A DNA stretch of 64,000 bases, from NCBI RefSeq assembly GCF_000026545.1, contig NC_011601.1, one strand, 5' to 3'. Below are positions 44,401-56,400 of the stretch, piece by piece. The stretch comes from Escherichia coli O127:H6 str. E2348/69. GTDB taxonomy: Bacteria > Pseudomonadota > Gammaproteobacteria > Enterobacterales > Enterobacteriaceae. How positions within the stretch are numbered: the first letter of the stretch is position 1; the number at the start of each line of letters is the position of its first letter. The position numbers were made by a program.

Positions 44401-47400
44401 ATCGGGTGCTCGGGTCAGCCATTGTATCGCCTGAACGGTAGCGCGCTCAACAGAATGACGGTCAGCCCATCGGTTAATTTCATTTTCGCCCTTGCGCAGA
44501 AAGGGACTGATTTTTTTATATTCATTTGATGAATTCATACAGGCGGCAAAACAAGCAGGACTGCCATTTATCCGCGCGCATAACAACGCCGCAAGCTGAT
44601 TATCCGGCTGTGTATTGACCCGTGTGCTGTTTAACAACTTTTCGAGAAGGGAAAGTGAAATAGGGTGGAGAGAGTGTGTGTTGGCCAGTTGGCAAAGTTC
44701 TGCAGTTGAACTTTTTGTGTGCTCTTCAGGGAGTTTTTCCACCTCATAGCTGCTTCGCCAGCGTAATGATTCATCAGCAAACAGTGACGCGTCGGCGTAG
44801 TTTTGTATCTCCAGCCCGGGTAACCAGCGTACTGGATGCCCGAGATAAGCCTGAAATGTCGCAATTGTCCGCGCCTGAAAGCCAATAAAACCAATGATTT
44901 GGTTAATGATCACACAGTCACAGACAGTAAGACCAACGTCATTCAGATGCTGGCGCGATCGGTTGTCGATAATAGAAGGCGAGCTAGCCAGTTGGCGGGC
45001 ATATTGCGTGATTTGTGCCAACCGATGATTACTTTCCCTGGAGGAATCAGGCCCGGGGAGCGGCGTAAGTCGCGCCGAATAGTAGTTACATAACCGTTGG
45101 ACGCCGCAAACCTGAGCAACCGTCAGGGCCGTCGACAAGCGTTCATAAGCGGTGAAGGTCTGTGAACGGGTCACGGTAAGCTGGTCAGGGAACAACTCTA
45201 CTGCAAGAACGCGCGCAGGGACCAGCCATGAAAGGAAGGGGGCCAGCGTTTCTTCATCAAGGATCACGTCGAGCAGAAAGGGATCGCTGACCTTTGCGGC
45301 TTCCGGGACCAGAGGCAGAACGTCATACTCCGCAGTACTGGATTGCGTTTCATGATACCAGTGGCTTTTGCCGGTGATGTGGCGTTGTTCCATGGGCGCT
45401 CCTTGGTCGTAAAGGAAATCGTTATCCTGACGCAAGGCGGGAAGGGGAGAAAGACGGATCGGCGATAACAAATATCAGAAAGGTATAACAGAGATAACGG
45501 GCGGCAGAACGCCGCCCAATATTTACCAACAGAACGATTATTTCAGTTCGAGTTCGTTCATTGCAGCGATACTGAAACCGCCGTCAACGTGGACCACTTC
45601 ACCGGAGATACCGGCAGAGAGATCGGAGCACAGGAATGCCGCGGAGTTACCCACATCTTCAATAGTAACGGTACGGCGAATCGGGGTAACGGCTTCGCAA
45701 TGAGCCAGCATTTTGCGGAAGTCTTTGATACCGGAAGCCGCCAGAGTACGGATCGGACCAGCAGAGATGGCGTTAACACGCACACCTTCCGGACCCATCG
45801 CGTTCGCCATATAGCGCACGTTCGCTTCCAGAGACGCTTTTGCCAGACCCATAACGTTGTAATTCGGGATAGCGCGCTCAGCGCCAAGGTAGGAAAGGGT
45901 CAGCAGGGCAGAACCCGGATTCAGCATGGAGCGGCAAGCTTTTGCCATTGCAACGAAGCTGTAGGAGCTGATGTCGTGGGCAATTTTGAAGCCTTCACGA
46001 GTAACGGCGTTAACATAGTCACCATCCAGCTGATCGCCAGGTGCAAAACCAATAGAGTGTACGAAACCGTCAAATTTCGGCCAAACTTTCCCCAGCTCAG
46101 CGAACATGGTGTCGATGCTGGTATCTTCGGCAACATCGCACTGCAGAACGATGTCAGAACCCAATTGAGCGGCAAATTCTTCTACGCGGCCTTTCAGTTT
46201 GTCGTTCTGGTAGGTGAATGCCAGTTCAGCTCCTTCGCGGTGCATCGCCTGAGCGATACCGTAGGCGATGGACAGTTTGCTGGCAACACCGGTTACCAGA
46301 ATGCGCTTACCGGAAAGAAAACCCATAGCTTTAATCCTTATTGTTGATGCTTGTTGTGCCTGAAAATCAGGCGATTCGTCGTTTTAGTAAACAGTACGAA
46401 CAGATAAACGGTTATTATAATCAACCTGGCTGTGGGTGGCTATAGTTGCGCTTTCTGTAGCGGAGAGAAGCTGCGGTACAGAGCATTTTGCGTTATCTAC
46501 TCCTGACGCCTGCAAGGGGGAGGTTGGGGAAATATCTTATAGAATCTGACTTTGAAACTATTCGTATTAGCTCCGATAAATTTGATGATGAAAACAGAAC
46601 TGGCGACAACAAGTCGCTGTCTTTCTGATGAATTGACCCCAACTTAATATTGTCAACTATCTTCACAGAATCTCCACAATCTCTTCATTATCAGAATATG
46701 CATCATGAATAAGATAAAAATACTTTCCATTACTTTGGAGAAACGTATAATTAGCAAAAATGAGAATGATCATTCTCACCAAGTGATAGGCCAGGAGACA
46801 GAAATGACCAGCAAGCTGGAGATACGCCACAAACAGCGTCAGGATGAAATCATTAACGCCGCCCGTCGGTGTTTTCGTCGCTGCGGATTTCATGCCGCCA
46901 GTATGTCGCAAATTGCCAGCGAAGCTCAGCTTAGCGTGGGTCAGATATATCGTTACTTCGCCAACAAAGACGCCATTATTGAAGAGATGGTTCGCCGTAT
47001 CATCGACTTTCGTATTGCCCAAATGGACATTGACGCGCGTACCGATCACTTCCCGGAAGTCCTTGCCTTGCGTAAATCCTTAAATGAGGACGACGACGCG
47101 CTGATGCTGGAAGTGGCTGCAGAAGCCACACGCAACCCGCGGGTTATGGCAATGCTTGAAGAAGCTGACGCCAGAATGTTCGCTAACGGTTGTGCACATA
47201 TGAAAAGAATGCATCCCCATCTTAGCGACGAGCACATTCGTTGCTGCGTTGAAGTGTTTGCTACCATGATGGAAGGTACGGTTTATCGTCGTTTAACACC
47301 GCAAAAAAGCGATCCACAACATCTGCAGGAAATATATCAGGATATTGTTAGTATGTTGATAAATAAATAAGAACAGAATTAACCAATAGCGGGGGATATT

Positions 47401-53400: not shown

Positions 53401-56400
53401 CGACAACGAACAATATTTACTGGCTGGTGGTCTGGCGTTTTATTCAAGGGATCGCGGGGGCGGGTGGTTCGGTGCTCTCTCGTTCTATTGCTCGTGACAA
53501 ATATCAGGGAGTAACGTTGACCCAGTTTTTTGCGCTGTTAATGACGGTGAATGGCCTGGCACCGGTGTTGTCACCAGTGCTGGGCGGGTACATTGTTAGC
53601 ACTTTTGACTGGCGCACTTTATTCTGGGTAATGGCTGAAATTAGCACCGTACTGTTGCTGGGCTGCCTGTTATTTATTAATGAGACCTTGCCAGAAAATA
53701 AAAGGGGCTCATCATTGCTATTAACCGGACGAAGCGTGGTGCAGAACCGCCGTTTTATGCGCTTTTGCCTGATTCAAAGTTTTATGCTGGCCGGTTTGTT
53801 TGCATATATCGGCTCTTCGTCGTTCGTGTTGCAGAAGGAATTTGGCTTTAGTCCAATGCAATTTAGCCTGGTGTTTGGCCTTAACGGCATCGGACTTATC
53901 ATTGCTTCATGGATCTTCTCGCGCCTGGCGCGACGGATTAACGCGATGACATTGTTGCGAGGTGGCCTGATAGCGGCAATTTTGTGTGCATTGCTCACGG
54001 TCTTATGCGCATGGGTACAATTGCCCATTCCGGCACTGGTGGCATTATTTTTCACCATCGCATTTTGTAGCGGCATCGGCACTGTTGGCGGGGCAGAGGC
54101 TATGAGTGCAGTAGGGACGCAGGAATCTGGAACGGCGTCTGCGTTGATGGGGATGAGCATGTTTGTCTTCGGCGGTATAGCCGCGCCATTGTCGGGAATT
54201 GGCGGAGAAACACTGTTAAAAATGAGTCTGGCAATTACGGTGTGTTATACGCTGGCATTGCTGGTTGCTCTCACCAGAATCGACAATCAAAAGTAATGAA
54301 CACCTCATCCTGAGCTGTCTCTTGATCAGATCTCCTGATCAAGAGACTTCATCACCAGGTAACCCTCAACCATATCCTGAAGTCTGAACCAGCCATCCCA
54401 CATGACTACCCAACCGGGGCGACCGGTGCGTTTGCTGTCATGCCATCGCCCCAGTTTCGCCAGTTTCAGACAGGCCCATTTCAGTGTCGGCATCTGTGAC
54501 GGAAGCGGTTTTCCTTCCAGCTTAACCCACAGCAGTTTCCACTCTGTCGGCGTCAGTATTTTCTCACAGCTGTCATTTTGTGTTTCTTCACTGATACCGC
54601 CCTGCCGCAGGCCCAGCACCCGCACCGCGATAAACGCCTTGATAACCACCATGCGCTCGAGGTTATCCCGGGTCTGCATTCGCAGCGATTCCACACATGT
54701 ACCACCACTTTTCCACGCCTTGTGGTATTCCTCTATCAGCCAGCGTCGCTCGTAATGGCTGACGATACGTCGCGCATCGGCGGCACTCGCCACTTTTTCT
54801 GACGTCAGCAGATGCCAGCAGGCGCCGTCCTCTGCCTGCTCCCGGCAACAGACATACGTGAGCGGGAGCGCCTGGCCGCTGTTGTCGGGATTTTTTATGC
54901 TGACTTCGCTGTAACTGATGAACATCCGGGCCTGGCGGGCTGCCCGCCCGCCTTTTTGCATCACATTCAGCGTGTGGCTTCCCGCGGTTGCCAGGACTTC
55001 CGGCAGTTCGAAGAGCTTGCCGGGTGCTTCTTCCAGCCGGCGATTCTGTGCTGCACGCACCACGAAGCGCTGCCCGTGGCTGACTTTATAATGCAGGTAA
55101 TGCCAGATATCCGCTTCCCGGTCACAGACAGTGATTACCCGTTTCTGTATCTCCCCCAGCCGTTCGGCCATGCGCTCCGAAGCCTGCTGCCAGCGGTAAC
55201 TTTCTTTTTCTTCATAGGGACGTTCTTTTCGCTGGTGCTTAACACCGTAGGTGTCCGTGGCACGACTCCAGCGCTGCTGTTCGATAAGACCGACTGGCAG
55301 GGCGCTGTCGGGGGCGTACATCAGGACAGAGTGAGCCAGCAGCCCGCGCGTCTTCGGGTTAGTGGTGGTATTCCCCAGGTCATCAGATGCCGTACTGTGA
55401 CTGAAGTTAATGGTGGTGGTGTCTTCCAGCGCGAGGAGCAGCGGATGAGCCTCACATGCCCTTACAGTGGCGGTAAATCCGGCTTCGGCAATGGCTTGCG
55501 GGGACACAGACGGGTTACGTATCAGGCGGTACGCACCTTCAACCTGAGCAGTGGACTGGGATGATTTCACAATAGAAAGACCTGCATGCTGAGCGAGAGA
55601 AGAGGCCAGTGACACAAGGCGTCGTGTACGACGCGGATCACCGAGACGGGCATGTCCAAACTGCTCGTTAGCCCATGAATAACAATCAGAAAGTACCATA
55701 ACAGACCCGAAGAAAATGAAATATAAGAGAAGATCAACAGGTGAGGAAAAAGTTCAAAAAATCGCTGCCGGGGAGGAAGGAAACTACCGGATGGAAAGAG
55801 TCCCCCTAAAGCAGACTGACAGACATCACAAATCCCCGGGTGGGGATTTGTGTATAAGAGACAGATCCTGAGGGGGGCCTGTCAGGATGAGGTGCAAAAC
55901 ACTAACGGTCCTTACGCCACGCATCCGCCGTCAATGCCTCGCCAAAATGACCGGCGATCAGCCGTTTGGTGAGTTCATGCAGCGGCGATGCCAGCACATC
56001 TGCGGTGCTGCCTCGCTCGACAACCTCGCCCTGATGCATCACCAGCACCTGGTCGCTAATGTGCTTCATCATTCCGATATGCTGGGTAACATAAATATAC
56101 GAAATGCCCTGTTTTTCCTGTAACTCCAGCATCAGATTAATCAACTGCGAACGCATCGACATATCCAGTGAGGCGAGGGCTTCATCGGCAATAATGACTT
56201 TTGGGCGCAATATCAGCGCGCGCGCCAGACCCAGACGCTGTTTTTGCCCGGGTGCCAACATGTGCGGATAGTAACTGACGTGATCCGGTAGCAGCCCAAC
56301 CATACGCATCGTTTCAATAATCTGTTTGCGACGCTGTTCCGGTTCCAGGTCGGTGTTCAGGCGCAGTGGAAAATCCAGAATTTGCGAGATACGTTGACGG

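Follow-up and report, generated by a model that had tools for sequence, protein, structure and literature searches.

An intact eefRABCD efflux operon between fabI and sapF of Escherichia coli E2348/69, with a perfect EefR operator and a terminator split by ISEc13

In the 64,000-nucleotide (nt) stretch of the Escherichia coli O127:H6 strain E2348/69 chromosome analyzed here (NC_011601.1; hereafter the window), fabI (45538-46326, minus strand) and sapF (55902-56708, minus strand) bracket five genes on the plus strand. This cluster is almost certainly the chromosomal E. coli eefRABCD operon, which is repressed by EefR, and loss of EefR would yield the EefABC and EefD pumps and drug efflux without AcrB. 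Calling of open reading frames (ORFs) together with RefSeq annotation showed all five eef genes to be intact and co-oriented, and the whole interval was a 100% match to the E2348/69 chromosome. Gene order, position between fabI and sapF, operator and protein sequences are those of eefRABCD in strains ATCC 25922, SMS-3-5 and ATCC 35218, indicating that this is the same locus.

The operon was named by Pugh et al. (Microbial Genomics 2026, PMC12817139; bioRxiv 2024) and is also the subject of Shen et al. (Virulence 2025, PMC12482432); the eefRABCD of the window is therefore already described and is not new. A preliminary description of this DNA had allowed that its claim would fall if the cluster turned out to be conserved at this position under a known name and function. 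This is what we found: the full 7988-bp region occurs in 2037 of 5426 complete E. coli genomes, with 98.1-100% nucleotide identity, and the arrangement recurs in three other Escherichia species. Being conserved in this lineage at the fabI-sapF position, and already having a name and a function, the cluster is not novel. Its interest lies in being the "seventh RND pump" of E. coli, which K-12 lacks and which the phylogroups isolated most often from infections carry, and in a latent capacity for resistance that one mutation in eefR can switch on, the latter point having been made in both papers. To these we make small additions: an intact E2348/69 copy with a perfect operator, a terminator split by a lineage-specific ISEc13, the presence of EefR and its operator across the Enterobacteriaceae, the apparent structural conservation of the eefR-eefA leader, and the operon's modular history.

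The first gene, eefR (46804-47370), encodes a TetR-family repressor of 188 amino acids (aa), as judged from matches to the TetR helix-turn-helix (HTH) and from RefSeq. It is followed by eefA (47519-48640), encoding a resistance-nodulation-division (RND) periplasmic adaptor lipoprotein of 373 aa with the lipobox LSGC (family hidden Markov model (HMM) and signal peptide); eefB (48640-51747), encoding a HAE1-type RND permease of 1035 aa (family HMM and relay residues); eefC (51751-53124), encoding an OprM/NodT-family outer-membrane lipoprotein of 457 aa with the lipobox SAGC (family HMM and structural relatives); and eefD (53133-54296), encoding a Bcr/CflA-type major facilitator superfamily (MFS; DHA1) transporter of 387 aa (family HMM and motif A). 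The start of eefR was set at 46804, which RefSeq and a Shine-Dalgarno sequence support, because 46705, the start of the longest ORF, lies upstream of the promoter and was rejected. An eefA start at 47486 was also discarded, as it is not conserved.

Four of the five proteins, all but EefR, scored above curated NCBIfam family cut-offs: EefA against RND_mfp TIGR01730 (274 vs 95), EefB against HAE1 RND TIGR00915 (1549 vs 940), EefC against the NodT outer-membrane factor TIGR01845 (374 vs 210) and EefD against Bcr/CflA TIGR00710 (282 vs 201). The matches of EefR to TetR models were numerous but confined to its HTH region, Pfam TetR_N being recorded for its orthologues, and EefR reached none of the named equivalog cut-offs (AcrR, 33 vs 271; BetI, 54 vs 201), which places it in the TetR family but outside any named subfamily except EefR itself. 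These results, with the intact ORFs, bear out the five-gene module of TetR regulator, membrane fusion protein, RND pump, outer-membrane factor and MFS transporter that the preliminary description had proposed. Its further statement that the genes are tightly spaced or overlapping holds for eefA and eefB (1-nt overlap), eefB and eefC (3-nt gap) and eefC and eefD (8-nt gap), but not for eefR and eefA, which are separated by 148 nt.

EefB fell below the equivalog cut-offs of both AcrB (1374 vs 2150 bits) and AcrD (1405 vs 1854), and EefC fell below that of TolC (56 vs 495). Protein identities to the window were 80% (EefA), 87% (EefB) and 77% (EefC) in Enterobacter hormaechei, 75% (EefA) and 84% (EefB) in a Klebsiella aerogenes contig, and 79%, 87% and 77%, respectively, in Kluyvera. 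The organization is thus eef-like rather than acrAB-like and includes its own NodT-type outer-membrane factor, both as first suggested from the sequence. The nearest solved structures were AcrB and MexB for EefB, OprM for EefC (4e-101), UidR for EefR, and EmrD and MdfA for EefD, and no TolC chain was retrieved as a relative of EefC at E<=1e-20; these results agree with the published modelling. All proton-relay residues are present in EefB (D408, D409, K935, R965 and T972, corresponding to D407, D408, K940, R971 and T978 of AcrB). EefD bears the MFS motif A GPLSDKIGRKRPL and a variant antiporter motif C (SPVLGG, not GPxxGG). We also confirmed in the window the EefC channel-lining residues G412, L415, T416, L418 and T419, which we call unusual after PMC12817139.

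Compared to AcrAB-TolC of E. coli, eef has the same architecture, proton-relay residues and a TetR-family repressor, but it supplies its own outer-membrane factor instead of TolC, its repressor gene is co-oriented and co-transcribed with the pump genes instead of divergent, and it is cryptic whereas AcrAB-TolC is constitutive. MexAB-OprM of Pseudomonas aeruginosa is likewise a tripartite HAE1 RND pump with its own co-encoded lipoprotein outer-membrane factor, and EefA and EefB are equally close to MexA and MexB and to AcrA and AcrB. However, identity is only about 55%, the regulator MexR is of the MarR type, and no MFS gene belongs to the mexAB-oprM operon.

Upstream of eefR, the best plus-strand site in the promoter scan (46724-46751) combines a -35 box TTTCCA, a 16-nt spacer and a -10 box TATAAT, with 10 of 12 consensus matches, and its position fits the promoter region of the green fluorescent protein (GFP) fusion used in PMC12482432. 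Nine bases past TATAAT begins the EefR operator, a perfect 18-bp palindrome TGAGAATGATCATTCTCA (46761-46778) with zero mismatches to TGAGAA-N6-TTCTCA. The exact operator occurs once in the window, where 0.11 matches would be expected in a scan allowing up to one mismatch. The palindrome bound by EefR according to PMC12482432, TGAGAACGATCATTCTCA, was established there as the operator by electrophoretic mobility shift assay (EMSA) and mutagenesis; the E2348/69 spacer reads TGATCA instead of the CGATCA of the described eefRABCD, and this one base makes the palindrome perfect. Furthermore, the operator is kept upstream of eefR in 11 further loci from 9 genera. A second site with one mismatch, TGAGGAGGGTATTTCTCA (47487-47504), is located 15 nt upstream of eefA, where it overlaps the conserved hairpin's 3' arm. 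We rejected it because other species, even within Escherichia, do not retain its half-sites; judging from these alignments, it is probably not an operator.

In the proposed mechanism, a TetR-family dimer of EefR on TGAGAATGATCATTCTCA, just past the -10 box, would block transcription of eefR and, since the five genes are co-transcribed, would also silence eefA, eefB, eefC and eefD. Shen et al. selected sanguinarine-resistant mutants of acrB-deficient ATCC 35218 and recovered eefR V45E and R50S; they showed by EMSA and a GFP reporter that EefR represses its own promoter, by reverse transcription PCR (RT-PCR) that all five eef genes are co-transcribed, and that deletion of eefR results in a 27- to 83-fold derepression (PMC12482432). 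EefR of the window has both V45 and R50, at which mutation derepresses the operon. Repression and derepression thus come from experiments in ATCC 35218, and in E2348/69 they are represented by sequence features only (operator, V45 and R50). Loss or release of EefR would lead to production of two pumps. The proton-driven EefB trimer, the adaptor lipoprotein EefA and the OprM-like channel EefC would form a tripartite assembly spanning both membranes, and EefD, a predicted 12-helix MFS antiporter, would export across the inner membrane. In laboratory culture, the operon is cryptic; when derepressed or overexpressed in AcrB-deficient cells, it expels amphiphilic cations and several antibiotics.

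The preliminary description had left the substrate as unknown. This stands for the physiological substrate but not for overexpression, on which transport of ethidium, rhodamine 6G, sanguinarine, macrolides, chloramphenicol, tetracycline, clindamycin and fusidic acid was reported (PMC12482432, PMC12817139). Cloned eefABC and cloned eefD raised the minimal inhibitory concentrations (MICs) of sanguinarine, erythromycin, chloramphenicol, tetracycline, clindamycin and fusidic acid (PMC12482432). We infer that the natural inducer or substrate may be a host- or plant-derived amphiphile.

Several observations weigh against the identification of the cluster as an EefR-repressed operon for AcrB-independent drug efflux. 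All experimental support comes from strains other than E2348/69. The two papers conflict, as pET-expressed eefABC in acrB-less MG1655 changed no antibiotic MIC and affected ethidium and rhodamine only (PMC12817139), whereas pBR322 clones in acrB-less DH5alpha gave 8- to 32-fold changes (PMC12482432). Different vectors and hosts probably account for this conflict, which leaves the extent of a natural "multidrug pump" role unsettled. A terminator-like hairpin directly after eefR fits poorly with simple co-transcription, and how ISEc13 affects the 3' ends of eefD mRNA is a further weak point; both elements are described below.

The same conflict bears on a different account, which we consider possible but would advance only tentatively, that the real job of eefRABCD is the export of a specific endogenous or host-related molecule for colonization or virulence, drug phenotypes being side effects of overexpression. 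Deletion of eefB, eefABC or eefD in ATCC 25922 produced no change in antibiotic MICs, pET expression of eefABC conferred dye phenotypes only, with export of ethidium and rhodamine by an acrB mutant, and eef is as highly conserved as acrAB-tolC in the phylogroups that carry it (PMC12817139). The unusual lining of the EefC channel would also fit a specific substrate. Conversely, no endogenous or host substrate of Eef has been found so far, cloned eefABC and eefD raised the MICs of several unrelated drugs (PMC12482432), the architecture of EefB is of the ordinary AcrB/MexB type (PMC12817139), and many successful lineages, commensal as well as pathogenic, lack the cluster.

Pugh et al. report eefRABCD from phylogroups B2, D, E, F and G, in every case flanked by fabI and sapF; phylogroups A, B1 and C carry ycjD there (PMC12817139). 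Our comparison is consistent with the initial view that the module stands in place of ycjD: ycjD (DUF559) was the sole gene between fabI and sapF in the K-12-type genome examined, and TBLASTN found no ycjD remnant in the window. BLASTN showed that the K-12-type fabI-sapF spacer and the window have in common only the 123 bp beside fabI and the hairpin arms on the sapF side. The fabI-proximal 123 bp (46327-46449; 98.4% BLAST identity), which eef-negative K-12-type strains share, contain a fabI-directed promoter-like site found in the promoter scan (46442-46414, minus strand). The left junction of the eef/ycjD difference therefore lies at about 46449/46450, where an eef-specific A+T-rich upstream region begins (46450-46723) that has no similarity to the K-12-type spacer and a G+C content of 0.44-0.45, compared to about 0.52 around it. 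The gene remnants suggested by Fig. 3 of PMC12817139, in which "operon fragment conservation" is drawn, were rejected: BLASTN at word size 7 against the K-12-type spacer (locus L002, 3001-3788) detected no eef-derived fragments beyond the fabI-side 123 bp and the hairpin/terminator arms, in contrast with that drawing. Upstream of ycjD, the K-12-type spacer instead has palindromic repeat units rich in G+C.

The fabI-eefRABCD-sapF arrangement was also found in E. albertii, E. whittamii, an Escherichia sp. and the GTDB representative of E. coli, and this common position across Escherichia species favors an ancestral Escherichia locus that was lost in some lineages. That eef is instead an island acquired recently by horizontal transfer, replacing ycjD, seems highly improbable to us. 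Lateral transfer was raised by Pugh et al. over the resemblance to Mex/Opr systems (PMC12817139), the chromosomal context of eef is quite different in other genera, a few copies are plasmid-borne (7 places in the E. coli genome search; 5 strains according to PMC12482432), and the regulatory region is A+T-rich. Nonetheless, the insertion point is identical in all four Escherichia taxa, Eef protein identity within Escherichia is 94-98% and tracks species divergence, the coding sequences have a flank-like G+C content of 0.51-0.54, and eef is not bounded by an integrase, a tRNA or direct repeats, the sole mobile element being the lineage-specific insertion sequence (IS).

Beyond Escherichia, EefABC of Klebsiella (Enterobacter) aerogenes, K. 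pneumoniae and Enterobacter are orthologues with the same eefR and operator upstream but a different chromosomal context. The operator (0-1 mismatch) and eefR precede eefABC in K. aerogenes, a Klebsiella sp., E. hormaechei, Cronobacter, Kosakonia and Raoultella, and EefR and the operator are also found ahead of eefABC in Kluyvera and Dryocola. Given this conservation, control by EefR is not the adaptation peculiar to E. coli that the discussion of PMC12482432 proposes. Silencing by H-NS has been reported for the K. aerogenes operon and is disputed for E. coli; the window offers only the A+T-rich upstream region in this respect.

The last gene is more variable, as Enterobacter, Kosakonia, Kluyvera, Raoultella and a Klebsiella sp. 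have eefD and the Cronobacter and Dryocola loci lack it. Furthermore, Erwinia and Pantoea encode an EefR orthologue (62-64% identity) whose gene overlaps by 4 nt an MFS gene with a product 46-48% identical to EefD, without eefABC. The Pluralibacter gergoviae locus has eefR, the operator, eefD (68% identity) and a leader remnant of eefA in which the ATG has become ATC; the retained leader remnant implies that eefABC was deleted there. These loci without eefABC (L049, 8001-9772; L050, 8001-9772; L053, 8001-10026) suggest from their gene content that the operon is modular, with a TetR-MFS core and eefABC as a separable module. The operon may be a composite, in which eefABC was inserted into an older eefR-eefD pair that is still seen in Erwinia and Pantoea. 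Neither PMC12482432 nor PMC12817139 mentions the eefR-MFS pair without eefABC of these two genera.

A full eefRABCD was also found in GCA_050507695.1 (L051), labelled Salmonella enterica, a genus in which Pugh et al. did not find eef (PMC12817139). Its eef neighbors, encoding a TonB-dependent receptor, an AraC-type regulator and a SIS-domain protein, match those of the Kosakonia locus L047. The assembly may be mislabelled, or the eef region may have been transferred.

The 148-nt spacer between eefR and eefA (47371-47518) holds three consecutive hairpins on the plus strand, which neither PMC12482432 nor PMC12817139 mentions. Directly after the eefR stop codon, a terminator-like hairpin GGGGGATATTAATCCCCC is followed by the T-run TTATTTCATT (47391-47418); most other genera have a hairpin and T-run there too, the stem sequences differing. 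The middle hairpin, GCGAAAT-TC-ATTTCGC (47419-47434), has counterparts in Enterobacter (TCTGGCT-C-AGCCAGA) and Cronobacter (TCCGGCA-C-TGCCGGA). The third, TCCTCATT-AATTTC-AATGAGGA (47471-47492), is found 27 nt upstream of the start of eefA and folds at the same position in 15 of 15 loci (the window, L003-L007, L042, L044-L047 and L051-L054), its stems varying by compensatory changes, as in CCTCATT/AATGAGG, CCTCGC/GCGAGG, CCCCGT/ACGGGG, CCCTGTTAA/TTAACAGGG and CCTGAT/ATCGGG. For this comparison across genera, each sequence was folded singly with the start codon as anchor, as the 5' arms were misaligned in an automatic MAFFT/RNAalifold consensus. A search of the regulatory region against Rfam gave no match at E<=1, and the promoter scan detected no internal sigma-70 promoter on the plus strand between eefR and eefA. 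A six-codon leader peptide, ATGCGGGTTCGTTATAACTGA, was considered and rejected, since the corresponding position reads ATG-TAG in E. albertii and has no ATG in Kluyvera.

Transcripts from the eefR promoter would thus cross a terminator-like hairpin and two conserved hairpins before reaching eefA, which suggests an extra control step. We therefore raise, as a speculation rather than an expectation, that the spacer is a conserved structured leader, with compensatory stems in at least 10 enterobacterial genera, acting as a second control point for eefABCD. Such a leader could work by attenuation, by mRNA processing or stabilization or by translational control, apart from the EefR operator, and might be the site where a physiological signal acts. 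The eefR-eefA junction was RT-PCR positive in the derepressed mutant (PMC12482432).

Downstream of eefD, the interval ends at 54314, the exact left boundary of a 1550-bp ISEc13 (54315-55864, minus strand), an IS4-family element with IS50-like ends recognized from RefSeq, HMM matches and reading of its ends. Its transposase (54326-55699, minus strand) scored 514 bits against transpos_IS4_3, and its ends read CTGTCTCTTGATCAGATCT and ...GTGTATAAGAGACAG, the former of which we take to be the IS50 inside-end sequence. The label "copy 2" used in the preliminary description is apt, as an identical ISEc13 lies at 9392-10941. That first copy is flanked by a perfect 9-bp target duplication, AGCCTAGCT, whereas the copy next to eefD has an 8-bp flanking repeat only, ATCCTGAG, the empty site reading ATCCTGAGG.

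The insertion sits at the junction of the 5' arm and the loop of a terminator hairpin and in E2348/69 splits the terminator common to the convergent eefD and sapF, parting the 5' arm CACCTCATCCTGA (54301-54313) from the 3' arm TCAGGATGAGGTG beside the sapF stop codon (55882-55894). In an IS-free B2 strain, the empty site forms the intact hairpin CACCTCATCCTGA-GGGGGGCCTG-TCAGGATGAGGTG, with a 13-bp stem, -27.4 kcal/mol and z = -5.3, in keeping with the earlier proposal that an IS50-like element had inserted into the terminal hairpin. Only 3 of the 5426 genomes, all O127:H6, contain the insertion junction of this copy, which points to a recent, lineage-specific event; in each of these three genomes, 27-30 places match the junction probe. 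No such insertion into the terminator was reported for ATCC 25922, SMS-3-5 or ATCC 35218.

It could be argued that the operon is compromised in E2348/69, ISEc13 having destroyed the terminator so that transcription from or through the IS disturbs eefD or sapF, an outcome that we regard as very unlikely. The element does break a hairpin of -27 kcal/mol 18 bp past the eefD stop codon, and its transposase gene is convergent with eefD. On the other hand, ISEc13 leaves the eef coding sequences untouched, all five being intact with lengths equal to the annotation in the IS-free B2 strain, loss of a terminator seldom abolishes expression, and the inverted repeat at the IS end could terminate read-through.

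The sapF-proximal terminator hairpin is present in both eef-positive and ycjD-type strains (L002, 3720-3765) and forms the right-hand junction of the eef/ycjD difference. Its stem shows a compensatory change, C-G in E2348/69 and T-A in the K-12 type, and the loop is wholly different. On the other side of the locus, yciW (44239-45471, minus strand), between rnb and fabI, is a frameshifted pseudogene in E2348/69 according to RefSeq and is intact in the K-12-type strain and the B2 strain examined.

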